Part shown: in pieces, positions 2,483 to 21,732 of the stretch
Position numbering within the stretch: position 1 is the stretch's first letter
Layout of the letters: each line of letters opens with the position of its first letter
Source: Hyphomicrobiales bacterium
GTDB lineage: Bacteria > Pseudomonadota > Alphaproteobacteria > Rhizobiales > Xanthobacteraceae
DNA: 46,624 nucleotides
Direction of reading: 5' to 3'
NCBI GenBank assembly: GCA_016210825.1
Contig: JACQTM010000354.1
Span: 1 to 46,624 of the forward strand
The notes under the pieces: model-generated
Told to the model about the DNA's origin: nothing
Seen by the model: the letters and a program-made list of their open reading frames with translations, nothing else
Databases searched by the model: none
Translations under genes and position numbers: made by a program

Positions 2483-2484
2483 GG

Positions 2485-3252
2485 TCAGCGGTGCTCCCAT
2501 TTTGCCGGTCGTTTGGCGATGAAGGCTTCAAGCCCTTCCACCGCGTCGTGCGTGGCCATCAATTCGTTGAGATAAAGCCGCTCCACGCTGGCGATCTTCG
2601 CCTTTACGCGGGCGACGTAATCGCCGCGCGCGGCGTGCACCGCGTGGCGCAGCGAGCTCGCGCTCTTCGGCTTGAGATGCTCGTCGAAGTAGGCAAGCGC
2701 CGCGCGCTCGGGATCGGGTGTTGCTTCCTTGGCGATGCCGAGCGTTGTGGCCTCCTGGCCGTTGATGCTGCGGCCGGAGATCAGCAGATCAAAAGCGCGC
2801 ATCGGCCCGATCAACTCCGGCAACAGGCAGGAGGCGGCCGGCGCGAAGACGCCGAGTTTCATTTCCGGCTGGCCGAGGGTGGCGTCGGGGGCGACAAACA
2901 TCAGATGCCCGGCGAGAGCGACTTCGAGGCCGCCACCGAGGCATTGGCCGCGCGCCGCGACCAGGATTGCCACCGGCGACTCGACCATGCGCAGCATTAG
3001 GCGATGCAGACCCGCAATCATGACCGCACATTGATCAGGCAAGTGCTCCTCGACGCTGGCGCCGAAGGAGAAGTGCGGCCCCTCCGCATCGAGCAGCACG
3101 GCGCCGAGATGGGCGTTGCTGAGATGCTCGGCAAGCGCGCGGTCGAGCGCCGCAATCATTCCGGCATCGATCAGGTTCGCCTTCGGCTTGCTCAACCGCA
3201 GCCGTAGCAGGCGGCCTTCCGCCTCGATCCAGACCTTGAGCGGGGAGGTCAT
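2485..3252 (-). CDS. dch: Crotonase-family hydratase, probably cyclohexa-1,5-diene-1-carbonyl-CoA hydratase
   Basis: 255 aa from ATG 3252; the track ORF is extended to a GTG at 3300. Enoyl-CoA hydratase fold (FSFGASVEEH, GGGLEVALAGH). ATGA overlap with the oah stop at 3249-3252. The substrate is inferred from its position between oah and bcrC. Confidence 0.7.
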   Translation of the reverse strand: MTSPLKVWIEAEGRLLRLRLSKPKANLIDAGMIAALDRALAEHLSNAHLGAVLLDAEGPHFSFGASVEEHLPDQCAVMIAGLHRLMLRMVESPVAILVAARGQCLGGGLEVALAGHLMFVAPDATLGQPEMKLGVFAPAASCLLPELIGPMRAFDLLISGRSINGQEATTLGIAKEATPDPERAALAYFDEHLKPKSASSLRHAVHAARGDYVARVKAKIASVERLYLNELMATHDAVEGLEAFIAKRPAKWEHR

Positions 3253-4394: not shown

Positions 4395-4405
4395 GGCGCG
4401 GCTCC

Positions 4406-5479
4406 TCAGGCGCTCGGGACAAGGACGGCGCGGCGTTTGATCTCGCCGTGATGTACTGCCTCGAAGATGCGATTTATTTCGCTCAACGGATGTTGCTCGA
4501 CGAAGGGTGTGACCTTCACACGGCCTTGCAGAACGAGATCGAGGGCCGCCGGATAGAGCTCCGGTGGGCAGCCCCAATTTCCGAGCGCGCGCGCGTGATA
4601 TGCCATCAGGTTGGATAACCGCACCTCGACCTTGTCCATTGTGAAGCCGACGATGCAAAGCGTCGCGCCATGATTGATAAGGCTGAAGGCTGTTTCCTGT
4701 CCGGCCTTGGTGCCCGAGCATTCAAAGATGATCCACTCCGTCTGCCGCAGTCCGTGCTCCTTGGCGAAAGTCTGGATTGCCGCTTTTAGGTCGCGGGGCT
4801 GAATTTCGCGCGCGTTGAGCGTGAGTGCCGCGGTCTCGCCGGCGAGCGCCGCGAGTTTTTCCGCACTAACATCGATCGCGACGACGGTACCGCCGAAGGC
4901 TTTGGCGATCTGCGCGCAATAGCCGCCGACGCCGCCGACGCCATTGACGACGACAAGATCACCTTCGTGCACGCCTGATTGCAGCACGGCCTGGTAGGGC
5001 GTCGTGACCGCATCGGCGATGACGGAAACATCGGCGAGGCTGATGCCGGCGGCTTTCAGTTTCGCTTCGTCGATCGGGCACAGACCGGTCGCCGGCACGA
5101 CGATATGGCTGGCAAAGCCGCCATGAATGTCATTGCCCGGCATTTTCTGATTGGGGCAGATCGTCGCTTTGCCGCGACGGCAAGCATCGCATTTTCCGCA
5201 TGGGATAACGGCAGGAACAATGACTGTCCTGCCCATCCAATTTTCCGCACCGGCGCCGGCCGCCACGACGTGACCGCTGATTTCGTGACCGAGGCAAAGC
5301 GGCAAGGCGTGTTTAGTGCGCACGCCATCGTAGAAATATCCGAGATCCGTGTGGCAGACGCCGCAGCCGGCGACCTTGACGACGACTTCGCCGGGAGGCG
5401 GGGGGAATGGATCGAAGCCAACCGCGACCAGGGGTTCGCCCTTACCGCGCATGACCCACCGAAAGGCCTGCTCGCTCAT
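4406..5479 (-). CDS. had: 6-hydroxycyclohex-1-ene-1-carbonyl-CoA dehydrogenase (Zn-dependent MDR family)
   Basis: 357 aa from ATG 5479 ([12 protein letters not shown]...). Zn-ADH motifs are present: [15 protein letters not shown], structural-Zn [15 protein letters not shown] and the NAD site GVGGVGG. It is the first gene of the had-oah-dch-bcrCB string. Confidence 0.75.
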
Positions 5480-5602
5480 TACTTTTGCTCTCCCCAGTAG
5501 GTGCGGTTGTTTCGAACCGCCCAATTCCGGCGGCGAGGGCTTTCTGGCTGAACCCTGTTTCCGCTTGAAGAGCACAAATAGCGTAATTCCGTACTTCAAT
5601 AC

Positions 5603-5616
5603 TTGATTTATATCAA
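5603..5616. promoter_or_regulatory. Perfect FNR/FixK-type box TTGATttatATCAA in the had / korA divergent intergenic region
   Basis: Read directly: TTGAT 5603-5607, N4, ATCAA 5612-5616. The centre is 82 bp upstream of the korA ATG (5692) and 130 bp upstream of the had ATG (5479). Confidence 0.6.
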
Positions 5617-5691
5617 CTTGGATTCCCGCATTTTCAGCCAGACTTGCTGCTGTCGGGACATGCATCCGATCCGATAGCGGTGAGGCAAGTC

Positions 5692-7422
5692 ATGGGCGGA
5701 CGAACAAGCATTTCCGTTGCAATCGTCGGCAGCGGTGGCGCCGGCACATTGACCGCCGGCGGCTTGTTGCTCGAAGCGGCGAACGCGGCAGGATGGTACG
5801 GGATTTTGACCCGCAGCGTCGGGCCGCAGATCAGGGGCGGCGAGGCAGCGGCGTTACTGCGCATCGCCACCGAGCCGGTGGATTGTATCGCCGATCGTTA
5901 CGATCTTCTGGTCGCGATTGATTGGCTCAACGCTCACCGTTTTGACGCCGAGATTACGCTCGCGCCCACTACGCTCGTGATTGGCGATCCGCGTGGCGGC
6001 GACGCGCCGCCGAGCGTTACCGCGGCGATGGCCGCGGGCGCGCGGCTGATCGATATTCCGATGAAGGAAATGGCCAAGGCGATGCCGAACGGCCGCGCCA
6101 ACATGATCGCGCTCGGCGTCACGGCGAAGCTGCTTGGCATCGACAGGAACGTGTTGTCGGACCTGCTGCGCGCGCGCTTCGGCGCGAAAGGCAAGGCGGC
6201 GGTGGAAGCCAATCGGATTGCCGTCGATGCGGGCTATGGCGCCGCCGCGCAGATCGATCTGGGTGCTCGTCTTGATAAGCCCAAGAAAAGCACGAGCAAG
6301 CGCTGGCTCATATCCGGGAACGAGGCGACAGCGCTCGGCGCCGTGCGCGGCGGCATTCGCTTCGCGGCGGCTTACCCGATAACGCCGGCGACCGAAATTC
6401 TCGAATGGCTCGCGCCCAACCTGCAACAGCTCGGCGGTACATTGTTGCAGGCCGAGGACGAGCTGGCCTCCATCAATATGATCATCGGCGCGTCCTTCGG
6501 CGGCGTACCCGCACTGACGGCGACGTCGGGTCCGGGGTTGTCGCTGATGATCGAGGCGCTGGGCCTTGCCACTGCGGCGGAAATTCCCATCGTTGTAATC
6601 GACGTGATGCGCGGCGGCCCGTCGACCGGCATCCCAACAAAATCCGAGCAGGCCGATCTCAACGTCGCCATCCATGGATTGCACGGCGATGCGCCGCATC
6701 TCGTGCTCGCACCGCAATCGGTCGCTGATTGTCTGTTCACGACGCAATGGACGGTGTTCCTTGCGGAGGCACTACAGGTGCCGGCTATCGTGCTTTCGGA
6801 TCAATTCATGGGGCAGGCGCGTGTCGCCATAGAACGGCCGGCGGACGTGGCTTTCATTGGACGGCGACTGACGGCAACTGAAATTGCCGCGCCTTACAAG
6901 CGCTACGCGCTTGGAGGCGCCAGCGTGTCGCCAATAGCTATCCCCGGCACGCTCGGCGGCCAATATACCGCCGAAGGCCTGACGCATACCGAACGCGGCG
7001 TGCCGACCAGCGGCGCCGCTGACCATCGCGCGCAACTCGACAAACGCCGCGACAAGCTTGACCGTTTTGATTACGGCAACCATTGGGCGACGATCGAGGG
7101 CGATGGCGAAATCGCCGTCGTCGTTTGGGGATCGCTCACCGGCGCGGCGCGCGAGGCGGTTACGCAGGCGCACGCCGATGGCGCGAACGTAAAGCTCGTC
7201 GCACCGCGGCTGCTTTGGCCGGTGCGACCCGAGCAATTCGCCGCAGCACTCAAGGGTGTCAAACGGGTGCTCGTCGTCGAACAAACCCACAGTGCGCAAT
7301 TTCATCGCTATCTGCGCGCGCATTATGACTTACCAAAAGATGTACACGTGCTGCACCGGCCTGGACCATTGACAATCGGGCCGGCTGAGATTCACCGCGC
7401 GATCATGGATTGGAGCTCCTGA
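5692..7422 (+). CDS. korA: 2-oxoacid:ferredoxin oxidoreductase alpha subunit (fused gamma+alpha domains), KorA-like
   Basis: 576 aa from ATG 5692 (MGGRTSISVAIVGSGGAGT...). An N-terminal gamma-type domain is followed by the alpha domain (ISGNEA..LGA..GG..F.AAYPITPATEI). The two-subunit organisation resembles Thauera KorAB, which re-reduces ferredoxin for Bcr. Confidence 0.75.
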   Translation: MGGRTSISVAIVGSGGAGTLTAGGLLLEAANAAGWYGILTRSVGPQIRGGEAAALLRIATEPVDCIADRYDLLVAIDWLNAHRFDAEITLAPTTLVIGDPRGGDAPPSVTAAMAAGARLIDIPMKEMAKAMPNGRANMIALGVTAKLLGIDRNVLSDLLRARFGAKGKAAVEANRIAVDAGYGAAAQIDLGARLDKPKKSTSKRWLISGNEATALGAVRGGIRFAAAYPITPATEILEWLAPNLQQLGGTLLQAEDELASINMIIGASFGGVPALTATSGPGLSLMIEALGLATAAEIPIVVIDVMRGGPSTGIPTKSEQADLNVAIHGLHGDAPHLVLAPQSVADCLFTTQWTVFLAEALQVPAIVLSDQFMGQARVAIERPADVAFIGRRLTATEIAAPYKRYALGGASVSPIAIPGTLGGQYTAEGLTHTERGVPTSGAADHRAQLDKRRDKLDRFDYGNHWATIEGDGEIAVVVWGSLTGAAREAVTQAHADGANVKLVAPRLLWPVRPEQFAAALKGVKRVLVVEQTHSAQFHRYLRAHYDLPKDVHVLHRPGPLTIGPAEIHRAIMDWSS

Positions 7423-7424
7423 CA

Positions 7425-8258
7425 ATGACCGCCGAAGTCCGCCCGCTTTGCAAACCCGCCGAATATAAATCCGACATCAAGCCGGTCTGGTGCCCGGGCT
7501 GTGGCGATTATCACGTCTTGATGTCATTCACGCGAGCCTTTGCCGAGCTTGGTCTGCCGCCGGAACAGATTGCGGTTATTTCCGGGATCGGATGCTCCTC
7601 ACGCATCCCCGCTTATACGAGCTGCTACGGTTTTCACGGTGTGCACGGACGCTCATTGGCGTTGGCGGCCGGTCTGAAAGTCGCCCGCTCCGACCTGACA
7701 GTGGTGGTGGCGAGCGGTGATGGTGACGGCTACTCGATCGGTGGCAATCATTTTATTCATGCCTGTCGGCGCAACATCGACATGACCTATGTGGTTATGG
7801 ACAACCATATCTACGGCATGACCAAGGGCCAGCCGTCGCCGACGACCGAGCCGGAATTCGACACCGCGCTGTCGCCCGGGGGCACCGGCTTGCGGCCGTT
7901 TCATCCACTCGTCATCGCGCTTGCATCCGGCGCCAATTTCGTCGCCCGCGCTTTTTCCGGAAATCCAAACGAGACCGCGAGCATCATTGTCGAAGCGATT
8001 CGTCATCCCGGGTTTTCGTTCATCGAAATCCTCAGTCCATGTGTCACCTTCCGGCCCGACGAGAAGGCGTGGAAGGACCTCGTGCATCCGGCGCCGGTAG
8101 AGGCGACCAACGATCCGGGAAAGGCGTCACGGCGCATCATGACCGATGACGGTTTCAACATCGGCATTCTCTATCGCGGCGACCGCAGGCCGTATCAACT
8201 CCACATGGGGCAGGCTTCGGCCGAACTCGCCGAACTGGAGAGGGAGTTCGAGACATGA
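7425..8258 (+). CDS. korB: 2-oxoacid:ferredoxin oxidoreductase beta subunit (TPP/FeS), KorB-like
   Basis: 277 aa from ATG 7425, which is 2 nt after the korA stop, with GGAG 9 nt upstream; the track start at 7410 is a TTG. Beta-subunit motifs are present: WCPGCGD, GIGCSSR and the TPP-binding GDGDGYSIGGNH. Confidence 0.8.
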   Translation: MTAEVRPLCKPAEYKSDIKPVWCPGCGDYHVLMSFTRAFAELGLPPEQIAVISGIGCSSRIPAYTSCYGFHGVHGRSLALAAGLKVARSDLTVVVASGDGDGYSIGGNHFIHACRRNIDMTYVVMDNHIYGMTKGQPSPTTEPEFDTALSPGGTGLRPFHPLVIALASGANFVARAFSGNPNETASIIVEAIRHPGFSFIEILSPCVTFRPDEKAWKDLVHPAPVEATNDPGKASRRIMTDDGFNIGILYRGDRRPYQLHMGQASAELAELEREFET

Positions 8259-8782
8259 CGGTCGCGGACGGGCCGAAGATCGCAAGCCTCGCCGATCTTT
8301 TCGCCATCGCCTATCAGATCGAAGCCGACGCGGTGGAGCGTTACACATTGCTCGCCGAGCAGATGCAGACGCACAACAATCCCGATCTGGTGAAAGTCTT
8401 CCGCGATCTTGCCCGTGCCGAAGGCATTCACGCCGAGGAAATCCGCCGGCAGGCCGGCGATATCGATGTTGTCGTCCACGCACGCAAAATGGCGAAATGG
8501 AAGAAGGGCGAAAGTCCCGAGGAAGCCGATCTCGGCGCGGCGCATTATCTGATGACTCCTTGGCACGCGCTGCGATTGGCATTGACTAGCGAGGAGCAGG
8601 CACTCGCCTTCTTCGCTCATGTGGTCGAAACGACGAAGGACGTGAAGGTCAAGGATATGGCCAAAGAGTTCGTCGAGGAGGAGGCCGAGCACGTCAATCT
8701 CGTCCACCGGCTGCTGAAGAAATATCCGCGGCCGCCGGAATCTTGGTCGCAGGATTCCGATCTTGCAATCCCACAAGAATAG
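8255..8782 (+). CDS. Ferritin-like / rubrerythrin-type di-iron four-helix-bundle protein
   Basis: 175 aa. Two ExxH motifs (AEGIH, EAEH) plus paired Glu in the helices (IEADAVERY, SEEQALAFF). ATGA overlap with the korB stop at 8255-8258. Confidence 0.6.
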   Translation: MTVADGPKIASLADLFAIAYQIEADAVERYTLLAEQMQTHNNPDLVKVFRDLARAEGIHAEEIRRQAGDIDVVVHARKMAKWKKGESPEEADLGAAHYLMTPWHALRLALTSEEQALAFFAHVVETTKDVKVKDMAKEFVEEEAEHVNLVHRLLKKYPRPPESWSQDSDLAIPQE

Positions 8783-8818: not shown

Positions 8819-10159
8819 TCAGGGCGTACGCTTGCGCATATCTTTCACGCGCACGGCCTTGCCCTGTGAGCGCGGGATTTCACCCGGCATCTTGATGTCG
8901 ACGTCACAGGTCACCCCAACCAGCGATTTGATGTGGTGGCGAACCTCGCTTGCCTTGTTCTTGTGATCAGCTTCGCTGCCGGTGAATTCAGGCATTGCTT
9001 CCACTTCCACGGTCATGTGATCGAGCGCACCTTCACGCGTAAGCATGATCTGATAATGCGGGGAAAGGCCGGGGAAGCCGACGAGAACGGCTTCCACTTG
9101 CGACGGATAGACGTTGACGCCGCGGATGATCAGCATGTCGTCGTTACGGCCGGTGACGCGCATGATGCGCATATGTGTTCGCCCGCAGGCGCAAGGTTCG
9201 TCGCTGAGCGTGGTGATGTCCCGAGTGCGGTAGCGGATCATCGGTAACGCTTCCTTGCTCAGCGTTGTGATCACGAGCTCTCCCGCTTCGCCCATTGGCT
9301 TTGGCTCGAATGTTTCCGGATCAACGATCTCGAACAGGAAATGATCCTCCCAGCCATGCAAACCATGCTGTGCCACATGGCATTCGCTGGCGACGCCGGG
9401 ACCGAGGATTTCGGAAAGGCCGTAGATATCCACCGCTTTGATGCCCATCCGCTGTTGGATGTCGGTGCGCATCGCTTCGCTCCATGGTTCGGCGCCGAAG
9501 ATGCCAGTGCGCAACGGCAGGCCGCGAACATCGACCCCCATTCCTGCGGCCACTTCCGCGATATTGAGCGCATAGGAGGGTGTTGCGCACAGGACTTGCG
9601 CGCCGAAATCCTGCAGCAACGCAACTTGCCGCTCGGTGCCGCCGCCTGAAATCGGCACCACGGTGCAGCCCAGGCGCTCGGCGCCGTAATGCGCGCCGAG
9701 GCCGCCGGTGAACAGCCCGTAACCATATGCGTTGTGAACGATGTCGCCGGGCCGGGCGCCCGTGCAGGCCATGGAGCGCGCCATCAAATCGGCCCAGGTG
9801 CCGAGATCGCCCTTGGTGTAGCCGACCACGGTCGGCTTGCCGGTCGTGCCCGACGATGCATGCAGGCGCAGGATCTGCTCTCGCGGCACCGCGAACAAGC
9901 CGAAGGGATAATTTTCGCGCAGGTTCGATTTCACCGTGAACGGGAAGCGGGCGATGTCGGAAAGAGTTTTGAGATCGTCCGGCTTGACGTTCGCTGCGTC
10001 GAACTTCCGCTTTACCGCCGGAACCTTGGCATAGGTGCGCTCCAGCGTTTTCTTCAGCCGGTCGAATTGCAATGCGGCGAGCTTGACCCGCGGCATCGTC
10101 TCGATCTCGTGTTGGAACATGAAGACATCGTTATTGAGGGCCGCGCGTTGTGTGTTCAT
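8819..10159 (-). CDS. paaK: Phenylacetate-CoA ligase family (PaaK type)
   Basis: 446 aa with the PaaK-family layout: SSGTTGKPTVVGYT (AMP motif), YGLSEILGPGV, RYRTRDI, DDMLIIRGVNVYPSQVE. GGGAGGAAAG lies upstream of the ATG at 10159. It is the last gene of the pad-like string. Confidence 0.85.
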   Translation of the reverse strand: MNTQRAALNNDVFMFQHEIETMPRVKLAALQFDRLKKTLERTYAKVPAVKRKFDAANVKPDDLKTLSDIARFPFTVKSNLRENYPFGLFAVPREQILRLHASSGTTGKPTVVGYTKGDLGTWADLMARSMACTGARPGDIVHNAYGYGLFTGGLGAHYGAERLGCTVVPISGGGTERQVALLQDFGAQVLCATPSYALNIAEVAAGMGVDVRGLPLRTGIFGAEPWSEAMRTDIQQRMGIKAVDIYGLSEILGPGVASECHVAQHGLHGWEDHFLFEIVDPETFEPKPMGEAGELVITTLSKEALPMIRYRTRDITTLSDEPCACGRTHMRIMRVTGRNDDMLIIRGVNVYPSQVEAVLVGFPGLSPHYQIMLTREGALDHMTVEVEAMPEFTGSEADHKNKASEVRHHIKSLVGVTCDVDIKMPGEIPRSQGKAVRVKDMRKRTP

Positions 10160-10239
10160 GCTCTTTCCTCCCGGTCAAAGGCCGTTGGCGCCATCGGCAA
10201 TCCGTTGCTTGTCCTGAAATCAACCTCGCGCATGCGCCG

Positions 10240-11850
10240 TTATCCTGCTTGCGACACCGTCCAGCCCGGTTTGACGGGTGGACCCGCGACACCTGCGCCG
10301 CGCCGCGGCGTGTGCGCCAGTGCAAAGCCCTGATTGTAGCCCGCGCGCGTGATGAGGATGAATTTCATCGCCCAACCGCCGGCAAAGGCCGACAATCCGG
10401 CAACGATAAAGAGTGGCGAACTGGCTGGCGGGAAGTAAAACGCGGCAATCGCCGCCAGCGCGGGGATCAGGAGCCCGAACGCGAAGAACCACGGGCGCAG
10501 ATAAATCAACGTCTCAATGGTGCGCGTCGGCGCTCCAGTCGTTATCAGCGCATTGAGGTAGGCTCGCCAAATTCCCGTTCTGGCGACGACCAGGATTAGA
10601 AGAGCGACCGCCGTGCCATGCGCCAATGGAGCGAGCGGCGCAAGACCCTGAGTCGCTGCGAGGAAAAGACCCGCGCCTTCCGCAAGCCCGGTTATGACGA
10701 TGAGGGGAACGATGAGCGGTGCGCGCCACGCCGGGATTCCCTTGGCTTCCTTCAGGATCATTGCCTGCGAGAACAGGAAGGGCAGGCTCAGCAGCATCGC
10801 GACAGCGAGTAGCACATTCGATTGGAACCACAACGCAATCAGTGCGGCTGGAAAGAATACGCCTACGATCCACGCCTCACGCGACATCCAGGAGCGTTGT
10901 GGTTGCCGCAAGACATAGATGAAGCGCAGCGGCCGGCCGATCTTGAACAACAACAGCAGCAGTCCAATCGCGATGATGCCGAGCGCCGCCAATGCAAGCA
11001 TGGCGGTCGGATAGCCGTCCAGCGCCGCGGCCGCGGCGCTGATGTAGAGGCCGCTGCCGGCCCCACCGCAGAGAAAATTCCCCGCCGCCTTCCAGTCCCA
11101 GTGTTGCTGATGCCAGGGTTCGACGCCGCGGGTGCGAACGCGCCCGGCGACGGGATCGGCTGCCGCTGCCGTGTCCGCCCCGCGCCCGGAATGCGCCGCA
11201 TGATCGGCCGCGTCATAGAGATAATAGAAGCCCGGCTCGGTCGCTACCTCCTCATGCATGCGGAAATTCTTATATTCCCGCAGCAACCGCGAGACGTTGC
11301 TGCCCGGGTCGTCGATATCCCCGAAATGCAGGGCGGTTGCGATGCAGGCGTTGACGCAAGCCGGCGTCGCGCGCGGGTCGATACCCGGCGTCACGCCGTT
11401 TTCGAGCCCGAAATCGATGCGGTCGGAGCAGAACGTGCATTTCTGCGCGACGCTGAGGCGGCGGGGGTCTTCGCGCTCGATCTCGTTCTGCATCGCGCTG
11501 TCGCCGTAGGCGAAATGTGGTGCATCGATTTTAAAGCGCGCCTGATAAGGGCAGGCCACGTCGCAATAGGCGCAACCGATGCAAATGTCGTAATCGATTG
11601 TGACGATGCCGTCATCGCGCTGGCGCGTCGCCGTGGTCGGACAGACATGCATGCACGGCGGATCGGCGCAATGCTGGCAGCCGACGGGAACGAAGGTGCG
11701 TTTCACCTGCGGAAAAGAACCGGCCTCGATGTCGAGAACCTTGCGCCACTGCACCGCGGGCGAGGTCGCGTTGGCGTGGCGGCAAGCGGCGGTGCAGGTC
11801 TGGCACCCGACGCAGCGTTCCAGATCGGCGACCATCGCCCAGCGGGTCAT
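10240..11850 (-). CDS. Fused four-cluster [4Fe-4S] ferredoxin subunit (DmsB/PsrB/PadC-like) and NrfD/DmsC/PadD-like polytopic membrane anchor
   Basis: 536 aa from ATG 11850; the track ORF runs to 11988. ATGA overlap with the large-subunit stop at 11847-11850. Four Cys groups are present: CVGCQTCTAAC, CQHCADPPCMHVCP, CIGCAYCDVACP, CTFC...CVNAC. An Ala/Gly/Asp-rich linker follows at about 11116-11214, then about 8 TM helices. Confidence 0.65.
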   Translation of the reverse strand: MTRWAMVADLERCVGCQTCTAACRHANATSPAVQWRKVLDIEAGSFPQVKRTFVPVGCQHCADPPCMHVCPTTATRQRDDGIVTIDYDICIGCAYCDVACPYQARFKIDAPHFAYGDSAMQNEIEREDPRRLSVAQKCTFCSDRIDFGLENGVTPGIDPRATPACVNACIATALHFGDIDDPGSNVSRLLREYKNFRMHEEVATEPGFYYLYDAADHAAHSGRGADTAAAADPVAGRVRTRGVEPWHQQHWDWKAAGNFLCGGAGSGLYISAAAAALDGYPTAMLALAALGIIAIGLLLLLFKIGRPLRFIYVLRQPQRSWMSREAWIVGVFFPAALIALWFQSNVLLAVAMLLSLPFLFSQAMILKEAKGIPAWRAPLIVPLIVITGLAEGAGLFLAATQGLAPLAPLAHGTAVALLILVVARTGIWRAYLNALITTGAPTRTIETLIYLRPWFFAFGLLIPALAAIAAFYFPPASSPLFIVAGLSAFAGGWAMKFILITRAGYNQGFALAHTPRRGAGVAGPPVKPGWTVSQAG

Positions 11851-14585
11851 GCCGCTACCTCCCGCCGCGCGATGCGAACCTTGACGAGATCGGCGCTCGA
11901 ACCGGTCGCGTCGGTAAGATCGAGCAGCATGGGCATGAGCGCGTTCATGCTGGGCGTATGAAAATCCTTTGCGAAGGGCGTGGCCCAATGGTCGAATTGA
12001 CCGATCATCAGCAGCGTGTCGGGACGTATGCCCTCGGACAATAAGACCTTGCCGCGCGTGCTGTTCAGGGGCGAGGCGACCTCAACAATATCGCCATCGC
12101 CGATGCCGAGTTTGGCCGCGGCGCTCTCGTTCATCACCACGCTGCCGTGTCCGATGACGTTATCGGCGACTTCCTTGATAAGCTGGATGCCGACATTACC
12201 GCCCCACGAATATTGCATGCTGCGCGCGGTGATCAGCCAGAACGGATAATCCGCGATGTTGACCTTGAAATGCTCGGCGAGCGCGCGTTCCCAGAGTTCG
12301 CCAAGGTCCCGCCAATGCGGCAGCGGTTCGTATTCCGAAAGCTGTTTGTCCCACCAATGGATGTCGTGTTCGTGCAGCCGCTGTTCGAGCTCCTTGCCGA
12401 TCCGGAATAACCGCTCCTGATACGGCTGCTCGAAACGAAGTCCGCTTTCGACCAGCTTGGGATAGAGATACCACTGCAATCGTGAGAATGGCTTCACGCG
12501 AAAGCCATGCTCGCGGAACCAGTCAAGTCCCTGGCTTTCCGCGCCGTCGGTAATCTCCGCACTCGCGGCGCGACAGGTCGCATCCCAGATCGCTTCGACG
12601 TCGTGGACTTTGGCCGGATCGAGAGAGAAATCGTAATTCTGACCGTTCAGCCGTACGCCATGCGCGCCACGGTTGATGGCGCCGTTATAGGCCTCCAGCA
12701 GTCCCGTCCGCCGCGCAAGATCGGTGGTGATGAATGTGAAATCCTTGGCCTCGCCCTGGGGCGGTACTGCCTGGTCGCGCAGCGCAAAGCCCTGGTAGTC
12801 CCAGAATTGCTCGACATACTTTGTGCCGCCGATGCGCAGAAGCTGCAATCCTTCAAGGTCAGTGCAGTCTGGCAGCAGAACATCGGCCATGTGATTGGTT
12901 TCGTCGCGGGTGAAGGCGAAGCACACCGTGAATGGAAACTTAGCCATTGCCTCGCCGACAGCCCTGGTGTCCCAGAACGAAATCGCCGGGTTGGTGCGAT
13001 AGACAAACCACACGTCCGGCGGATCGGCGTGGGGGATATGCTCGAAGTCCTCGTTCTGCATCATCCAGGCGAGATGTGTCGGCCCCAGCGCCTGGCTCCA
13101 GGCGGAATTTGCGACCAGCGGCACCAGCGTGCGGTGAATGCTCCGCGCCGGCGGCTGCGCGATCCATTGATCGCGACTGGTCGGATTCATCGGATAGTCC
13201 ATGAAGCCGTCCGGCCCGGGCTTGACGCTCGACCAGCGATTGTCCGCCGGCCGGTTGAGCCGAACCGTGGTGCCGAGCGTGCCGCCCGGGACTTCCAGCG
13301 CGCCGACGAGACAGGGAAGCAGCGTGCGCGCCCAGCAACATTCGTAGCCGCCCCAGCCGTTGTTCACGGTCTTGCCGAGCGCGATCGCGACCGGGCGGAA
13401 GGGAAGCGTGACGCCTTCGATATCGATCGTTTCACCGACGCGGGCGTGATCGAGATACTCGTTGGCAATTCGACGGATTGTCGGCGCGGAAACGTCACAA
13501 ATCTGCGCCGCCCATTCCGGCGTGTACTCCTTCACATGCGCCACGAGATGCGCGAAGGCGGGCATCGCCGTCACATCACGATGGATGGTCTCTTCGTTGT
13601 CGGGACCTGCCTCGATGCCGTCGACAGCGAAGTCTCCCTCGATTGCCGGGTCAATGCCGCTTGTATCGAACGGCACGGGGTGCCGCGCTTTGGTATTAAA
13701 AACCAGGGGCTTTCGCGTCGCCGGGTCGCGCAGGAAATAACCATGCGGACCGATGAGATAAGTTGCTGAAGTGCGCTCTTTGAGGAACGCAAGATCGAGC
13801 CGCGTGCGCGGCTGCTCATGCAACAGCACATGGATCATCGCAAACAGGAAAGCCGCATCGGTTTTCGGCTTGATCGGGATCCATTCCGCGGAACATGCGC
13901 CCGTAATGGACAAATGCGGCTCGATCTGCACGCGCTTCATGCCGCGTGCGCGCGCATCGGCATGGCGTTTCACCCCGCAGACGCCGCCGGAGGCTTCGAC
14001 ATTGGCGCCGAACGAAACGAGATATTCGCAGAGCGGCGTGTCGGGAGAGACGGTGAACGCGCGGTGCCATAATTCGCCGTAGAGATGCTCTGAGTGGTAG
14101 CACTTCACGCCCTGGCCCGAACCGAAGCTCATGTCCACCGGGCCCCAGGCGGCGAGGAAGGCCGGCAGCGTGCCCATATAGGCGGTCGGCGTACCACCGC
14201 CGCCAAAACTCGCGGCGACGCGCGGATAACCTTGCGCGTTGAGCAGACCGGCAGCGCGCGCGCCATTGAGTTTCTCGGCGACGAGCGCGAGCGCCTCGTC
14301 CCAGGAAATTTCAACAAAACCGGGATCCTGATCGCGGCCCTTTTTCGGATTGGTCCGCTTCATCGGATGCAGGATACGATTTGGGCTATAGGCCTTCTGG
14401 ATCAAGCCATAGGCCTTAACGCAGACACGGCCGCCGGCTGGATGAATCTGTGCGGCATCGAAGTTCGGATTTATCTCGGTCGCCGCGCCGTCCTGGATGC
14501 GGACCTTCAGCAGATCGGGCCCGGCCACGCATTGATAGCAATATGTCGAAATCGTACGGTCGCTATTGCTCTTGCGTGCGCTCAT
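11847..14585 (-). CDS. Molybdopterin (DMSO-reductase family) oxidoreductase large subunit without Tat signal; PadB-like (phenylacetyl-CoA:acceptor oxidoreductase candidate)
   Basis: 912 aa with a bis-MGD family layout. There is no twin-arginine leader (MSARKSNSDRTISTYCYQCVAGPD...). The N-terminal Cys motif is incomplete (C16-x2-C19, Pro at the third position, C55). It is flanked by a paaK homologue and a CoA thioesterase. Confidence 0.6.
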   Translation of the reverse strand: MSARKSNSDRTISTYCYQCVAGPDLLKVRIQDGAATEINPNFDAAQIHPAGGRVCVKAYGLIQKAYSPNRILHPMKRTNPKKGRDQDPGFVEISWDEALALVAEKLNGARAAGLLNAQGYPRVAASFGGGGTPTAYMGTLPAFLAAWGPVDMSFGSGQGVKCYHSEHLYGELWHRAFTVSPDTPLCEYLVSFGANVEASGGVCGVKRHADARARGMKRVQIEPHLSITGACSAEWIPIKPKTDAAFLFAMIHVLLHEQPRTRLDLAFLKERTSATYLIGPHGYFLRDPATRKPLVFNTKARHPVPFDTSGIDPAIEGDFAVDGIEAGPDNEETIHRDVTAMPAFAHLVAHVKEYTPEWAAQICDVSAPTIRRIANEYLDHARVGETIDIEGVTLPFRPVAIALGKTVNNGWGGYECCWARTLLPCLVGALEVPGGTLGTTVRLNRPADNRWSSVKPGPDGFMDYPMNPTSRDQWIAQPPARSIHRTLVPLVANSAWSQALGPTHLAWMMQNEDFEHIPHADPPDVWFVYRTNPAISFWDTRAVGEAMAKFPFTVCFAFTRDETNHMADVLLPDCTDLEGLQLLRIGGTKYVEQFWDYQGFALRDQAVPPQGEAKDFTFITTDLARRTGLLEAYNGAINRGAHGVRLNGQNYDFSLDPAKVHDVEAIWDATCRAASAEITDGAESQGLDWFREHGFRVKPFSRLQWYLYPKLVESGLRFEQPYQERLFRIGKELEQRLHEHDIHWWDKQLSEYEPLPHWRDLGELWERALAEHFKVNIADYPFWLITARSMQYSWGGNVGIQLIKEVADNVIGHGSVVMNESAAAKLGIGDGDIVEVASPLNSTRGKVLLSEGIRPDTLLMIGQFDHWATPFAKDFHTPSMNALMPMLLDLTDATGSSADLVKVRIARREVAA

Positions 14586-14597
14586 GATGGTTGATCC

Positions 14598-15014
14598 TCA
14601 GGCCGGCTTGGTCGCCACGCGCTTGGCGGCCTTCGCCTTTAATCGCTCGATTGTCTTTGCGACGTCGACGACAAAACGTGAATGACTTCCAGCGCCGATC
14701 TGTTCCAGTTCGTCCTTCGCGGTGACGTTGAAAGATACCTTGCGTCCTTCGACTGCGGCGACGGTGACAGTAATTTCCACCGCCATGCCGAGTAGCGTCG
14801 GCGCGAGGTGTTTAATGGCAATTTCCATCCCCACGGAATCTTCACCGGTGTCGCCGTGTGCGAGGATGAGGTCGCGACAGGTATGTTCGATATCGCGGAC
14901 GAGATAAGGTGTGCCGTAGACGCGTCCCTCTTCGCCCATGAAACTGATTGTGCGTTCGCGGTCGATGGTAAACCGGCTCGTGTGTGAAATTCCCGTACGC
15001 AAACTCGCCTTCAT
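14598..15014 (-). CDS. Hotdog-fold acyl-CoA thioesterase, FlK (fluoroacetyl-CoA thioesterase)-like family
   Basis: 138 aa. The pattern GTPYLVRDIEHTC...GMAVEITVTVAAVEGRKVSFNVTAKDELEQIGAGSHSRFVV parallels the FlK-type hotdog core. It lies 12 nt upstream of the Mo-enzyme gene. Confidence 0.7.
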   Translation of the reverse strand: MKASLRTGISHTSRFTIDRERTISFMGEEGRVYGTPYLVRDIEHTCRDLILAHGDTGEDSVGMEIAIKHLAPTLLGMAVEITVTVAAVEGRKVSFNVTAKDELEQIGAGSHSRFVVDVAKTIERLKAKAAKRVATKPA

Positions 15015-15112: not shown

Positions 15113-15126
15113 TTGACTGACATCAA
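15113..15126. promoter_or_regulatory. FNR/FixK-like box TTGACtgacATCAA (9/10) upstream of the thioesterase-padB-like string
   Basis: Read directly. The centre is 105 bp upstream of the thioesterase ATG (15014), in the 155-bp gap after livF. Confidence 0.45.
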
Positions 15127-15169: not shown

Positions 15170-15871
15170 TCACACGCCGAGATAGGCGGCTTGTACGCGG
15201 CTGTCGGAGAGAAGTTCTTGCGCCGTACCCGTGGCGGTGATTTGTCCGGTCTCGATTACATAACCGCGGTCCGCGATTGCGAGCGCTGCGCGCGCATTTT
15301 GTTCGACCAATAATATCGTGAGGCCACGCCGCTTGAGCTCGCGAACCACGAGGAGAATCTGATCGACTAGGATTGGCGCCAATCCCATCGAGGGTTCATC
15401 GAGCAGCAGGAGGCGCGGTTTCGCCATCAGGGCGCGGGCGATGGCGAGCATCTGCTGCTGGCCGCCGGACAGCATGCCAGCCGGCGTCCGGCGCATCTCC
15501 GACAGCATGGGGAAATGCTCGTAGACATAGGAAAGCTCGGCCGCGACGTCCGTATTTCGGCGCGACCACGCCCCAAGCGCGAGGTTATCCTCGACCGTGA
15601 GCGGGGCGAACAATTGCCGGCCCTCGGGCACCTGCGCGATGCCGCGCGCGACCCGCGAATGGGCGGCGCTGCGCTCGATGCGCGCGTCCTCGAAGCGAAT
15701 TTCCCCAGCCGTGATCGGCTGCACCCCGGAAATCGCCCGCAGCAGCGTGGTCTTGCCGGCGCCGTTGCCTCCCACGAGGGTCACGATTTCACTGGCCTCA
15801 ACCTCGATCGAAACGCCATGCAGCGCTTCGATCCGCCCGTAACCGCTGCGCAGGTCCTTAACCGACAGCAC
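15170..15871 (-). CDS. livF: Branched-chain-type (HAAT family) ABC transporter ATP-binding protein, LivF-like
   Basis: Walker A GGNGAGKTT, signature LSGGQQQ, Walker B LLLLDEPS. The likely start is GTG 15871, preceded by a perfect AGGAGG 6 nt upstream; the track's ATG at 15892 lacks an SD. It overlaps the livG 3' end. Confidence 0.85.
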   Translation of the reverse strand: MLSVKDLRSGYGRIEALHGVSIEVEASEIVTLVGGNGAGKTTLLRAISGVQPITAGEIRFEDARIERSAAHSRVARGIAQVPEGRQLFAPLTVEDNLALGAWSRRNTDVAAELSYVYEHFPMLSEMRRTPAGMLSGGQQQMLAIARALMAKPRLLLLDEPSMGLAPILVDQILLVVRELKRRGLTILLVEQNARAALAIADRGYVIETGQITATGTAQELLSDSRVQAAYLGV

Positions 15872-16646
15872 GCGCGGCCTCCTGCGAACCATGAACGCCG
15901 AGATAGGCTTCGATCACCGCCGGATCGGCACGCACTTGCGCGGCCGTTCCTTCGGCGAGGGTACGTCCGTTTGCCAGTACATGGATGCGATCGGATATCC
16001 GCATCACCAGCCGCATATCGTGTTCGACGAGAACGACTGTGATACCGTCATCGGCGATGCCGCGAACGATGCCGGCAAGCTCCCCAGTCTCCACCGCGTT
16101 GCAGCCGGCCGCAGGCTCATCGAGCAGCAACACCTTCGGCTCAGTTGCAAGCGCGCGCGCGATTTCAAGGCGCTTGAGGTCGCCGAAGGACAGATTTCCG
16201 GCGGGCTTGTCCGCCGCAGCAGAAAGATCGACGCGATCGAGCGCGCCCGCTGCCGCCGCCCGCGTGCGCGCATTCTGCCGCCCGACCGCAGGCAGATGGA
16301 GCAGGCTTGGAAAAATTCCGACCGTTTCGTGGCGGTGGCAGCCGACCATGACATTTTCCAGCGCGGTCATGCGGAAGAAGATTTGCAGGTTCTGGAAGGT
16401 GCGCGACAATCCGCGTCGCGCCAGTTGTTCCGGGGGCAGCCCGGTCACATCCTCACCCCGCATGCGGACGCGGCCGTCCTGCGGCACATAGAGGCCGGAG
16501 ATCAGGTTGAACAATGTCGTCTTGCCGGCGCCGTTCGGCCCAATGATGGAAAAGACAAGACCTTCGTCGATCGACACGCTCACATTGTCGACGGCGCGCA
16601 CGCCGCCGAAAGCGATGGAGAGACGCTCGATGGCAAGGATGGTCAT
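15858..16646 (-). CDS. livG: HAAT-family ABC transporter ATP-binding protein, LivG-like
   Basis: 262 aa. GPNGAGKTT, FGDLKRLEIARAL, LLLDEPAAG. ATGA overlap with the livM stop at 16643-16646. Confidence 0.85.
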   Translation of the reverse strand: MTILAIERLSIAFGGVRAVDNVSVSIDEGLVFSIIGPNGAGKTTLFNLISGLYVPQDGRVRMRGEDVTGLPPEQLARRGLSRTFQNLQIFFRMTALENVMVGCHRHETVGIFPSLLHLPAVGRQNARTRAAAAGALDRVDLSAAADKPAGNLSFGDLKRLEIARALATEPKVLLLDEPAAGCNAVETGELAGIVRGIADDGITVVLVEHDMRLVMRISDRIHVLANGRTLAEGTAAQVRADPAVIEAYLGVHGSQEAARAVG

Positions 16647-17623
16647 GCGCGCCGCCTCGATAACGCCGCCGCAATGCTGGGTACGATGCCGGCCCTCAGA
16701 AAGATCATGACGCCCATCACCACGAGCCCAAGCACCATTTGCTCATAGTCGTGGAGAAAGGTGAGAACCTGCGGCAGCATGACCAGCAGAGCCGCGCCGA
16801 CCAGCGATCCGGCGATCGAGCCGATGCCGCCGAGCACGACCATCGCGACAAGCTCGATGGAGCGCAGGAAACCCGAGACGTCCGGCGTGATGTGGCCGTT
16901 GAAAGCCGCGAGATACGAGCCGGCGACGGAGGCATAGACCGCGGAGATGATGAAAATGACAAGTTTTTGTTTCGCCACATCGACGCCGAGAACGCGCGCA
17001 GCGACTTCGCTGTCATGGATGGCGCGCAGCGCACGACCGGTCGGGCTGTCGATGAGATTGGCTGCGAGCGCCGCACCGAAGACGAAACTGATCGCCGCGA
17101 TCCAGTACCAGGTTTCGGTTCCGCGCACCGACCAGCCGAACAATACGGGGCGGGGAACTAGCATGCCGTCGGGGCCGCCGGTCAGTCGCGCTTCGTTGAC
17201 GAAGACGATGGCGAGCAGCAATCCGAAGCCGAGTGTGGCGACAGCGAGATAGTGGCCTTTGAGCCGAAGAATGGGCCTTCCAACAATAAATGCCACGAAC
17301 GCGGAAAGCGCAGCGCCGATGAGAAAAGACAACCACGATGGAATGTTGAAATGGGTCGGACCGATGGCGACGGCATACGCGCCAATACCCATGAAGCCGG
17401 CATGACCGAGGCTGACCTGGCCCGCGAATCCCATCAACAGGTTGAGCCCGATCGCGGCAATGGCGAAAACAAACACCAGCGCGGCGACCCGGTAATAATA
17501 AGTGGAGGGAAAGAATGCCGGTATAACGATCGCAATAACTGCGATGACAGCGATCGCGCTCAACCGTTGCACGAACGGCCGGCGTAGAACTGCCGGGATC
17601 CGGTCGGCGGTATGCCTGAGCAT
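16643..17623 (-). CDS. livM: HAAT-family ABC transporter permease, LivM-like
   Basis: 326 aa from ATG 17623 (MLRHTADRIP...), 2 nt after the livH stop. The track ORF 16643..18037 is a false 138-aa extension running through livH. Polytopic, with LGHAGFMGIGAY. Confidence 0.85.
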   Translation of the reverse strand: MLRHTADRIPAVLRRPFVQRLSAIAVIAVIAIVIPAFFPSTYYYRVAALVFVFAIAAIGLNLLMGFAGQVSLGHAGFMGIGAYAVAIGPTHFNIPSWLSFLIGAALSAFVAFIVGRPILRLKGHYLAVATLGFGLLLAIVFVNEARLTGGPDGMLVPRPVLFGWSVRGTETWYWIAAISFVFGAALAANLIDSPTGRALRAIHDSEVAARVLGVDVAKQKLVIFIISAVYASVAGSYLAAFNGHITPDVSGFLRSIELVAMVVLGGIGSIAGSLVGAALLVMLPQVLTFLHDYEQMVLGLVVMGVMIFLRAGIVPSIAAALSRRRA

Positions 17624-17625
17624 GG

Positions 17626-18498
17626 TCAAACGCGCTCGACTTTCGCCCTGCCAAGCAGACCCTGCGGCATGACGAAGAGCACCGTGAGGATTACAAGGAA
17701 AGCAACGGCGTCCTTGTATTGCGAGGACAGATAGCCCGCGGCGAAAGCTTCCAACAACCCGAGTACCAAACCACCGATAACCGCACCCGCTGCGATCCCC
17801 ATGCCGCCCAGCATTGCAGCTGCGAAGCCCTTGAGTGCCAGTAACGTGCCGACATCGTAGTTGGTGAGCGTGATCGGGGTGATAAGAATTCCGGCGACCG
17901 CGCCAATCGCCGCAGAGATCGCAAACGAGAAGCCAACGATGCGCCGCGTGTCGATGCCGACCAAACGCGCCGCGAGCCGGTTTACCGCCGTTGCGATTAC
18001 CGCCTTGCCGAGCAAGGTGCGATCGATGAAGGTCCACAGTAACACGACAATCACGACCGCGCCGGCAAGCACCACGAGGCTTTGCGGCAGGATTGCTGCA
18101 CCGACGAAGCGAATGGGCTCGCTGCCGAAAAATGCGGGCAGGGTGTGGAATTGCTTGTCGAAAAAAACCTGCGCGGCGCCGCGAAGAAAAATCGAAGCGC
18201 CGATGGTTATCATGATCAATGAGACTGCGTTCGCGCCGCGTGCCGTCTCGATGGCGAAGCGATGGAGCGCCAATCCGACCGCCATGGCGAAGATAACGGC
18301 CAGCAATGCAGCGAGCGGCAAGGGAATTCCTGCAAGGCCGAGAAAAACGGTGGTCATGCCGCCGAGCATGACGAATTCGCCTTGGGCGAAATTGATGACG
18401 TCCGAGGCGTTATAAATCAGTGTGAATCCAAGGGCGACGAGGGCATAGACGGCGCCGACAGTAAGCCCGGAAAACAGGAACTGGACGAATTCGGCCAT
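17626..18498 (-). CDS. livH: HAAT-family ABC transporter permease, LivH-like
   Basis: 290 aa (MAEFVQFLFSGLTVGAVYALVALGFTLIYN...). This is the canonical LivH N-terminus and topology. Confidence 0.85.
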   Translation of the reverse strand: MAEFVQFLFSGLTVGAVYALVALGFTLIYNASDVINFAQGEFVMLGGMTTVFLGLAGIPLPLAALLAVIFAMAVGLALHRFAIETARGANAVSLIMITIGASIFLRGAAQVFFDKQFHTLPAFFGSEPIRFVGAAILPQSLVVLAGAVVIVVLLWTFIDRTLLGKAVIATAVNRLAARLVGIDTRRIVGFSFAISAAIGAVAGILITPITLTNYDVGTLLALKGFAAAMLGGMGIAAGAVIGGLVLGLLEAFAAGYLSSQYKDAVAFLVILTVLFVMPQGLLGRAKVERV

Positions 18499-18542
18499 CG
18501 TTCGATTGCCTCACGCCTGACCCGCGACATTAAACACTAATG

Positions 18543-18568
18543 GGGCGGGCCCCGCGAAGGGCCCGCCC
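18543..18568 (-). terminator. GC-rich intercistronic hairpin between the binding-protein gene and livH (partial terminator or mRNA stabiliser)
   Basis: Perfect 10-bp stem: GGGCGGGCCC (18543-18552), loop cgcgaa, GGGCCCGCCC (18559-18568). It sits in the 89-nt gap between the SBP stop (18588) and the livH start (18498). Confidence 0.45.
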
Positions 18569-18587
18569 GCGCAACATTTCACATGCC

Positions 18588-19748
18588 TTACGAGCCGGAA
18601 TCGCTGACCAGCGTCCAATCGCCCTTCTTGATTTCGAGCATGCGGAACGCCGTAAGGTCGAGACCCAAATGGTCCGTCGGCGACATGTTGACGATGCCGC
18701 CGGTTCCGACGAAGCCCTTGGTCTTCTCGATTTCGTCGCGCACCTTGGCCTTATCCCAGCTTCCCGCGCGCTTGGCTGCCTCGACCAAAATCATCAATCC
18801 GTCGTAGGCGTGGCCACCAAACGTCGAAACCGGCTGACCGGATTTCTGCTCGTAGGTCTTTTTGTAAGCTTCGACGACCGGCTTCTGCTTGTCATTTGCC
18901 GACAATTTATCGGCGACCAGCAAAGCCGCGGCCGGTAGGCGTACGCCTTCTGCGGCGGGGCCGGCAAGATTGATGTACTGCTTCGAAGCCACGCCGTGGC
19001 TTTGATAAAATGGCAGCTTGATGCCAAGCTGTTGATAGTTGCGCGTCACGATTGCCGGACCTTGGCCAAAGTCCGTGTTGATGACCGCCTGCACACCCGC
19101 CTTTCCCTTGATGTTGGTGAGTTGCGGCGTCATGTCGGTGTCGCCGGGGCCGTAGCTCTCTTCGTGGACGACGGTGATCCCGGCCTTGGGTGCGACCGCC
19201 ACGCATTGGTCGCGCATTGACTTGCCAAAAGCAGCCGTACCCGAGATCAACGCGACCTTGGTGAGGTTACGCCGCTTGAGATCGGCGAATATCTTCTCGC
19301 ACGCCATCGTGTCGGTGTGCGGGGTCTTAAACACCCACTTGCGAACCGGCTGGATGATCTGAATAGCGCCGGCGAGCGAGATAAACGGAATCTGCGCTTC
19401 CTCGAAGATCGGGATGATCGCCAGCGTTACGCCGGTGGTGCTGCCGCCAACCATGGCGGTGATCTTATCCTCGTCGACTAGGCGTTTGGCGAATGTGAGC
19501 GCTTCGTTGGGTTTGCCGCCATCATCGTAGACAACGAGTTCAAGTTTTTTACCGTTGACGCCGCCCTTGGCATTGATATCGGCGACGTACATCTCCAGCG
19601 TCTTCTTCTCGGGGTCGCCGAGGAAGGAAGCAGGCCCCGTCACCGACAGGATCGCGCCAATCTTGACTTGGGCCGAGGCGCTGCCCACCGCGAGACATGC
19701 GGCGAATATGCTTGCTGCGGCGATTTTCATGTATTTTTGCATCATCAT
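18588..19748 (-). CDS. Periplasmic substrate-binding protein, LivK/Peripla_BP_6 type (aromatic-acid binder suspected from context)
   Basis: 386 aa. Signal peptide MMMQKYMKIAAASIFAACLAVGSASA|Q, followed by VKIGAILSVTGPASFLG, typical of this family. Confidence 0.85.
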   Translation of the reverse strand: MMMQKYMKIAAASIFAACLAVGSASAQVKIGAILSVTGPASFLGDPEKKTLEMYVADINAKGGVNGKKLELVVYDDGGKPNEALTFAKRLVDEDKITAMVGGSTTGVTLAIIPIFEEAQIPFISLAGAIQIIQPVRKWVFKTPHTDTMACEKIFADLKRRNLTKVALISGTAAFGKSMRDQCVAVAPKAGITVVHEESYGPGDTDMTPQLTNIKGKAGVQAVINTDFGQGPAIVTRNYQQLGIKLPFYQSHGVASKQYINLAGPAAEGVRLPAAALLVADKLSANDKQKPVVEAYKKTYEQKSGQPVSTFGGHAYDGLMILVEAAKRAGSWDKAKVRDEIEKTKGFVGTGGIVNMSPTDHLGLDLTAFRMLEIKKGDWTLVSDSGS

Positions 19749-20990: not shown

Positions 20991-20993
20991 CGC

Positions 20994-21543: not shown

Positions 21544-21732
21544 GAAACTCACGATCAGGGATAGGGCGGACATCAGGATGGACGAATATTTGCAGGTACC
21601 AAGAGAGATCCATGCCTGGAGGACAGGGCATGCCACAATCTATAAGCTGTCTTTATTCTAACGATTGCATCACGATACGACAGGCCGCCAGGGGTGCGGC
21701 GTGAGTTGAAAATCACGGAAAGTCGTAAGGCG

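Follow-up and report, generated by a model that had tools for sequence, protein, structure and literature searches.

The subject of this analysis is a stretch of 46,624 nucleotides, referred to below as the window, which comprises positions 1 to 46,624 of contig JACQTM010000354.1 from the metagenome-assembled genome (MAG) GCA_016210825.1 of a Hyphomicrobiales bacterium (Xanthobacteraceae). Between positions 8,819 and 15,014, four minus-strand open reading frames (ORFs) follow one another, coding for a FlK-fold thioesterase, a molybdenum enzyme, an FeS protein fused to a membrane anchor, and a ligase of the phenylacetate-CoA ligase type (Table 1). The genes are tightly packed: a gap of 12 nt separates the thioesterase gene from that of the Mo subunit, the latter overlaps the FeS/anchor gene by 4 nt (ATGA), and 80 nt precede the ligase gene. 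Both this spacing, as calculated from the coordinates, and the family labels, as judged from family searches, agree with an earlier note on this DNA, which had read the four genes as a compact Pad-type module for the anaerobic oxidation of phenylacetate. It appears highly probable that they indeed code for the upper steps of the anaerobic Pad pathway, the padBCD, padEFGHI and padJ genes of which have been described (PMC4453571, PMC5109826).

Table 1. Features of the window considered in this work (positions as counted from the first nucleotide of the window)
Feature	Position	Strand	Properties
FlK-fold hotdog thioesterase	14598..15014	-	138 aa, 15.0 kDa; PF22636, E = 4.5e-32
PadB, catalytic subunit with molybdenum-bis(pyranopterin guanine dinucleotide) (Mo-bisPGD)	11847..14585	-	912 aa, 101 kDa; PF00384 and PF01568; without twin-arginine translocation (Tat) signal
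Fused PadC-PadD	10240..11850	-	536 aa from the ATG at 11850, 57.7 kDa; Fer4 families, NrfD weak
Probable phenylacetate-CoA ligase, PaaK/PadJ type	8819..10159	-	446 aa; TIGR02155 over the full length
FNR/FixK-type box	15113..15126	-	TTGATGTCAGTCAA (minus strand), about 100 nt before the thioesterase start
Five-gene ABC importer of the Liv/Peripla_BP_6 type	15170..19748	-	Pfam: binding protein (18588-19748), two permeases, two ATPases
KorAB-type two-subunit 2-oxoacid:ferredoxin oxidoreductase and rubrerythrin-like protein	5644..8782	+	convergent with the ligase gene; TIGR03710
Thauera-type benzoyl-CoA pathway genes bcrB, bcrC, dch, oah, had	3..5665	-	curated NCBIfam models
FtrB/Crp-Fnr-family regulator	21694..22458	+	NF006901 (FtrB), 127 bits (below the cut-off of 211 bits)

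The Mo subunit can be identified as PadB by its similarity and by its position in the phylogenetic tree. Over residues 11-907, it shows 69% identity to the PadB that heads the padBCDEFGHIJ cluster on contig C20 of Thauera aromatica LG356, the reference strain used here, which is not the biochemically studied strain K172. Homologues with 79-90% identity are plentiful in MAGs of Xanthobacteraceae, Pseudolabrys, Undibacter and Hyphomicrobiales, and many of the homologues at 80% identity carry the JGI label "phenylacetyl-CoA:acceptor oxidoreductase", a label that is assigned automatically. A maximum-likelihood tree of 103 sequences places the window protein inside an 84-member clade (SH-aLRT 100, stem of 0.54 substitutions per site), which includes every canonical pad cluster recovered (L039, L054, L062, L082, L085, L087, L091 and L098, the last one being that of T. 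aromatica). The canonical T. aromatica PadB belongs to the sister group of the alphaproteobacterial subclade that holds the window protein. The nearest relatives outside the PadB clade are 38-49% identical, with Tat leaders in some of them.

When the T. aromatica genome was searched as a whole, three PadB homologues were recovered, with 63-69% identity to the window protein. The copy on C20 starts the complete padB-C-D-E-F-G-H-I-J string. Another copy, a 68% identical paralogue (L040, G001:C23:74044-76764), is solitary, lacking any adjoining gene for an FeS or anchor protein; its neighbours code for a DUF2889 protein, an MFS transporter, MaoC, a 4HBT thioesterase and FdhE. The locus L099 (G001:C66) contains a padBCD set without padEFGHI. 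The lack of PadC and PadD at L040 had prompted the idea that the window protein is not orthologous to T. aromatica PadB, which was dropped because the genome holds three paralogues, one of which heads the canonical cluster. In the genome under study, there is another Mo subunit of the DMSO-reductase family (C401:2094-5276), which is 28% identical to PadB and is accompanied by a four-cluster FeS partner with 37% identity to PadC.

Could the enzyme instead belong to the respiratory reductases (Psr, Phs, Ttr, Arr) and stand beside genes of aromatic degradation by chance? The three-part design, with a Mo subunit, a four-cluster protein and an NrfD-type anchor, is shared with them, and the nearest named relatives in NCBIfam and in PDB are PhsA, ArrA and PsrA. 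These matches, however, score far below the cut-offs: the best named NCBIfam model, PhsA, yields 163 bits (cut-off 694), ArrA 109 bits (1600) and TtrA 38 bits (1750), and the best PDB relatives, ArrA (101 bits) and PsrA (67 bits), cover about the first 250 residues; the PDB was found to contain no PadB or PadBCD structure. No twin-arginine motif is present in the Mo subunit or in the FeS protein, and neither PadB nor PadC-PadD carries a Tat or Sec signal, whereas distant outgroups do have a Tat signal. Considering also the tree position within the PadB clade and the conserved neighbourhood of CoA ligase and thioesterase genes (see below), a respiratory reductase is exceedingly improbable. Thus, with 69% identity to the PadB of a complete cluster, placement in a clade with an SH-aLRT of 100, and a large distance from Psr, Phs and Arr, the large subunit clusters with PadB and away from the respiratory reductases, so that the Pad-type assignment proposed in the earlier note stands.

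In sequence, the window enzyme is only distantly similar to these respiratory enzymes. Like PsrABC (2VPW-2VPZ) and ArrAB (6CZ7), the window enzyme combines a Mo-bisPGD subunit of the DMSO-reductase family with a four-cluster ferredoxin subunit; as in PsrABC, it has an anchor of the PsrC fold with eight transmembrane (TM) helices, and Cys162 of PadB aligns with Cys173, the Mo ligand of PsrA. PsrABC and ArrAB are periplasmic, Tat-exported reductases, whereas the window enzyme would face the cytoplasm, does not have the third FS0 cysteine, and would probably function as a CoA-thioester dehydrogenase. Specifically, the FS0 cysteines of PadB are only C16, C19 and C55 (within residues 1-55, window 14421-14585); at the third cysteine position, a conserved Gly-Pro-Asp is found throughout the PadB clade and also in the outgroups closest to it, whereas the Cys is retained in distant outgroups. 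Asp24 may serve as the fourth ligand of FS0.

The next gene combines PadC and PadD in one polypeptide. Its residues 1-215 (23.8 kDa) contain 16 cysteines in four [4Fe-4S] ferredoxin-type motifs. A linker of variable, low-complexity sequence (residues ~216-244) leads to the anchor part (residues ~245-536), which, according to hydropathy, contains eight hydrophobic helices with K/R-rich loops that fit an N-in, C-in topology. In the characterised enzyme, PadC and PadD are separate subunits with masses of about 27 kDa and about 26 kDa, respectively. The identity to the separate T. aromatica subunits is 71% for the PadC part and 40% for the PadD part. Pfam recognises several Fer4 families in the 536-aa protein and NrfD with 21.5 bits, below the cut-off of 25.8. 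The AlphaFold2 model of the anchor domain (pLDDT ~90) has PsrC as its top fold match in PDB (2vpw_C, E = 3.7e-5, TMt 0.64), followed by ActC of the alternative complex III. The three-subunit layout of PadBCD is, then, not found here: with the anchor in frame with PadC, the enzyme would have two subunits.

A single fused ORF of 523-549 aa recurs at about 26 loci of Alphaproteobacteria, one of them in the complete genome of Sulfitobacter sp. JB4-11, whereas padC and padD are two genes, mostly in different frames, in beta- and gammaproteobacterial loci. Judging from this distribution, the fusion is real and specific to the alphaproteobacterial clade. Three further apparent fusions were excluded from the count: those at L069 and L077 result from the read-through of a stop codon by tblastn, and the one at L078 is likely to be a frameshift artefact, with an inter-domain sequence that is not homologous. 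Two MAGs of Hyphomicrobiaceae have one uninterrupted in-frame ORF for PadC, PadD and the PaaK-type ligase together (L021:12733-15672 and L029:12739-15729, 980 and 997 aa, respectively), which, if real, would tether the ligase to the membrane anchor. A search of the literature returned no report of a fused padCD. Since an FeS domain without a Tat signal is not exportable, its N-terminal fusion to the eight-TM domain provides independent genetic evidence that PadC and, hence, PadB are located at the cytoplasmic face of the membrane. The same placement, fitting a CoA-ester substrate, had been put forward in the earlier note on the ground of the Tat-less Mo subunit, and it appears to be borne out by the predicted topology and by the lack of export signals.

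The first gene of the module codes for a protein that matches PF22636 (FlK) with 110.7 bits (cut-off 27) and shares the hotdog fold with the fluoroacetyl-CoA thioesterase FlK of Streptomyces cattleya (3KUV, 3P2Q). Upon alignment to the FlK structures, its T35, E43 and H69 match the Thr/Glu/His triad Thr42, Glu50 and His76, and its R113 matches Arg120, the former three forming the catalytic triad of FlK. The gate residue Phe36 of FlK is replaced by Glu29, so that the selectivity feature for fluoroacetyl-CoA is absent, and the genetic context is a pad operon, not self-resistance to a fluorometabolite; the substrate proposed here is phenylglyoxylyl-CoA. The only FlK-type thioesterase in the T. 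aromatica genome is 50% identical, and its gene follows padJ on the same strand at a distance of about 2.2 kb. Thioesterase activity is a known property of PadBCD enzyme preparations. Hydrolysis of phenylglyoxylyl-CoA is required by the pathway (PMC9765128) and is included in its descriptions (PMC9765128, PMC13416013), of which the one from 2026 lists merely a "thioesterase" for this step (PMC13416013); our search of the literature for a named phenylglyoxylyl-CoA thioesterase gene found none. Its conserved position makes the FlK-type gene the obvious candidate for this hydrolysis, and the window thioesterase appears to be a good candidate for the phenylglyoxylyl-CoA hydrolase.

The last gene of the module matches the PaaK model TIGR02155 over its entire length (model positions 1-422 of 422) with 613.7 bits, and its product contains the AMP-binding and AMP-binding_C_2 domains. 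It shares 74% identity with the ligase at the end of the padBCDEFGHIJ string in L054 and 54% with T. aromatica PadJ; the synteny and the similarity to the cluster-terminal PadJ of L054 favour its membership in the PaaK/PadJ group. A second PaaK-type ligase is encoded elsewhere in the same genome (C320:612-1925), on a contig of 2.9 kb with an uninformative context, and is 52.5% identical to the window copy.

The order of the genes is widely conserved. A scan of species-representative genomes yielded 80 loci related to the window PadB, and thioesterase-PadB-PadC/D-ligase is the commonest arrangement among them. The thioesterase gene is present in 54 of the 73 loci with enough upstream sequence, lying directly upstream of padB and on the same strand in 49 of the 73, and the ligase gene follows PadC/D directly in 41 of the 64 loci with enough downstream sequence, a position that is occupied by padE in only 6 of the 64. 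In many alpha- and betaproteobacterial loci, a five-gene ABC importer is found directly upstream of the thioesterase gene. Homologues of KorAB and of the rubrerythrin-like protein adjoin the pad modules in many loci as well; in T. aromatica, a pair of KorB (65%) and a rubrerythrin-like protein (37%) is encoded upstream of padB. In four close relatives (L015, at 4611-9946, L019, L022 and L025), the thioesterase gene is separated from padB by inserted genes for the indolepyruvate/arylpyruvate:ferredoxin oxidoreductase IorA (699.5 bits, cut-off 650.9), for a probable IorB and for a 2-oxoacid:ferredoxin oxidoreductase (OFOR) of three subunits. As IorA converts arylpyruvates into arylacetyl-CoA, this insertion fits an aromatic amino acid context; no close IorA orthologue was found in the MAG under study. 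The occurrence of PadB is patchy, with 2 of the 41 sampled genomes of the family and the order possessing it, so that the module can be considered an accessory trait.

The conversion of phenylglyoxylate into benzoyl-CoA requires separate consideration. The window contains no padEFGHI, as the earlier note had stated, but the final step, which the note had left unassigned, can be accounted for, since a padEFGHI set, for a five-subunit phenylglyoxylate:NAD+ oxidoreductase, is located on contig C19 of the same MAG (9774-14496, minus strand). PadG (755.7 bits, cut-off 700), PadH (607 bits, cut-off 475) and PadI (778.9 bits, cut-off 700) exceed the respective NCBIfam thresholds, while PadE (293 bits, cut-off 300) and PadF (148 bits, cut-off 150) score marginally below them. 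The five proteins are 87-94% identical to those of the relative G044, where the compact pad module and padEFGHI reside on one 2.7-Mb contig, about 2.4 Mb apart. With both modules being so distant on one contig of G044, the unlinked state of padEFGHI is the normal one in this lineage. As padEFGHI is at hand on C19, KorAB need not be invoked for the phenylglyoxylate step.

Several further features of C19 can be mentioned. A fragment of an IS481/IS3-type transposase gene is located downstream of padI (C19:7238-7921); given this and the deviating composition of C19 (see below), either the region is mobile or the binning is uncertain. Divergent from padEFGHI, there is a second, PorCAB-like OFOR (C19:15472-19998, L014), which yields 278 bits with the PadG model, and after it comes a GltD-like NAD(P)-binding protein (NF009410, 732 bits); together, they may represent a paralogous NAD(P)+-dependent oxidoreductase for an arylglyoxylate or a 2-oxoacid. 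OFORs resembling this second one are the sole relatives of PadG in two carriers of the pad module, Sulfitobacter and a betaproteobacterial MAG.

From these elements, the following route can be envisaged. The PaaK/PadJ ligase would convert phenylacetate, probably brought in by the upstream ABC system, into phenylacetyl-CoA. The membrane-bound, cytoplasm-facing complex of PadB with the fused PadC-PadD would then catalyse the four-electron oxidation of the alpha-methylene group to phenylglyoxylyl-CoA, with the oxygen coming from water, and the electrons would pass from Mo-bisPGD, with Cys162 as the probable ligand, via FS0 and then through the PadC domain with its four [4Fe-4S] clusters to a quinone bound in the PsrC-like PadD domain. 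The FlK-fold thioesterase would release phenylglyoxylate, to be converted by PadEFGHI, encoded on C19, into benzoyl-CoA, which would enter the adjoining Bcr/Dch/Had/Oah pathway. On balance, we lean towards a still more specific view, namely that the FlK-fold thioesterase is the long-unassigned phenylglyoxylyl-CoA hydrolase, from Thauera to the Alphaproteobacteria, and that the gene fusions reflect a single membrane-attached complex of ligase, oxidoreductase and anchor, which would channel the intermediates at the cytoplasmic face.

A number of observations weigh against assigning the locus to the phenylacetate pathway, and some of them bear on alternative explanations. The genome of this organism is a MAG that is 80% complete and comprises 401 contigs; the role of the thioesterase is drawn from synteny only; and the AlphaFold2 model of the FeS domain is unreliable (pLDDT about 30) and was not interpreted. 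Furthermore, both the GC content of C19 (57.7% versus 60.7%) and its tetranucleotide correlation (0.955) are the lowest among the long contigs of the bin, so that it probably, though not definitely, belongs to this genome. Being such a compositional outlier, C19 might be mis-binned, in which case KorAB, encoded next to the module, could be the enzyme that forms benzoyl-CoA from phenylglyoxylate. The frequent pairing of KorAB and the rubrerythrin-like gene with pad modules, that of T. aromatica included, would fit such a role, as would the module-bearing Sulfitobacter, Rhodobiaceae MAG and betaproteobacterial MAG, in which no PadG scores above the cut-off. However, the C19 PadEFGHI shows a level of identity to the set of the closest complete relative that is expected within the same lineage, both modules are on one contig in that relative, and KorAB co-occurs with full padEFGHI clusters (L085, L098). 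In Thauera, moreover, KorAB is the 2-oxoglutarate:ferredoxin oxidoreductase supplying Bcr with reduced ferredoxin, which we count against its involvement in phenylglyoxylate oxidation. KorAB was accordingly ranked low as the phenylglyoxylate-oxidising enzyme once padEFGHI had been found, and this explanation seems very unlikely.

The remaining points concern the substrate. The presence in T. aromatica of three PadB paralogues, two of them outside the canonical cluster, implies that membership in the PadB clade alone leaves the substrate unfixed, and the score of the window ligase is slightly under the PaaK equivalog cut-off of 646.3. The same architecture and chemistry could therefore serve 4-hydroxyphenylacetyl-CoA, indoleacetyl-CoA or another arylacetyl-CoA, with a ligase and an importer to match; the second PadG-like OFOR with its GltD-like partner beside padEFGHI on C19 and the ability of IorA, as found in the relatives, to take several arylpyruvates point in the same direction. 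Set against this are the single PadB in the genome, which groups with the canonical T. aromatica copy and not with the L099 paralogue, the close similarity of the ligase to the one terminating the full L054 cluster, and the presence of the PadEFGHI set in the MAG. We consider a different arylacetyl-CoA to be an improbable substrate, though not as improbable as the involvement of KorAB, and retain phenylacetyl-CoA as the probable one.

The surroundings of the module are those of a benzoyl-CoA pathway. Each of the five products encoded at the left end, BcrB, BcrC, Dch, Oah and Had, exceeds its curated NCBIfam cut-off, in line with the placement of the module next to a benzoyl-CoA reductase cluster in the earlier note, and KorAB scores 543 bits with TIGR03710 (cut-off 482.75). 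The rubrerythrin/ferritin-like gene (8255-8782) follows korB with an ATGA overlap; its T. aromatica counterpart (L098:12321-12860) lies upstream of padB, the pairing with korB recurs in many other pad loci, and its product might protect the OFOR from oxygen. On the other side, the ABC system upstream of the thioesterase gene is likely to be responsible for arylacetate uptake. The transporter string is headed (window 19761-21401) by genes for a 409-aa membrane protein without a family match and for a DUF59/SufT-like protein; homologues occur in only a few related loci (L020, L055, L071, L078, L084).

As to regulation, the FNR-type box upstream of the thioesterase gene deviates by one mismatch from TTGAT-N4-ATCAA. 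The window contains 5 such boxes versus 1.17 expected, a number that is reached in 1 of 100 shuffles, and in each of the 12 closest relatives (L015-L027), TTGA-N6-TCAA precedes the thioesterase gene by 59-82 nt. The box suggests induction under low oxygen, and the FtrB-like Crp/Fnr regulator encoded in the window is a candidate reader of such boxes. An N-terminal fragment of NarG (139 bits, E = 4.8e-40) at the edge of contig C117 (3-245) suggests a respiratory nitrate reductase that was broken off by the assembly. The Bcr-pathway genes, the FNR-type box and the NarG fragment would all fit a facultative anaerobe that degrades aromatics via benzoyl-CoA.

Taken together, the data support the view of a known Pad system with a modestly different architecture. 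The resemblance to the characterised PadBCD (EC 1.17.5.1) of T. aromatica, Aromatoleum evansii and A. aromaticum EbN1, as measured by the identities of the three parts given above and by the common absence of Tat signals, extends to the T. aromatica cluster as a whole, with its linked phenylacetate-CoA ligase, its neighbouring KorB/rubrerythrin pair and its FlK-type thioesterase. The differences are that PadC and PadD are one polypeptide here, that padEFGHI is unlinked and located on another contig, that the thioesterase gene comes first, immediately before padB, instead of downstream of padJ, that the ligase gene follows the anchor directly and an ABC importer lies upstream, and that the host belongs to the Alphaproteobacteria (Xanthobacteraceae/Pseudolabrys type), whereas the known PadBCD enzymes are from Rhodocyclaceae.

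To our knowledge, the Mo-dependent anaerobic route of phenylacetate and phenylalanine degradation is known biochemically only from denitrifying Rhodocyclaceae. The findings on the pad module do not overturn the current understanding of this route; they nominate a specific gene for its thioesterase step, offer, in the natural PadC-PadD fusion, genetic evidence for an electron-transfer subunit on the cytoplasmic side, and reveal that the textbook padBCDEFGHIJ cluster is less common, within the 80 closest PadB loci that were recovered, than the compact thioesterase-PadB-PadC/D-ligase unit with its ABC importer. The route would thereby be extended to Alphaproteobacteria of soil and groundwater, as represented by the Xanthobacteraceae/Pseudolabrys-like MAGs.

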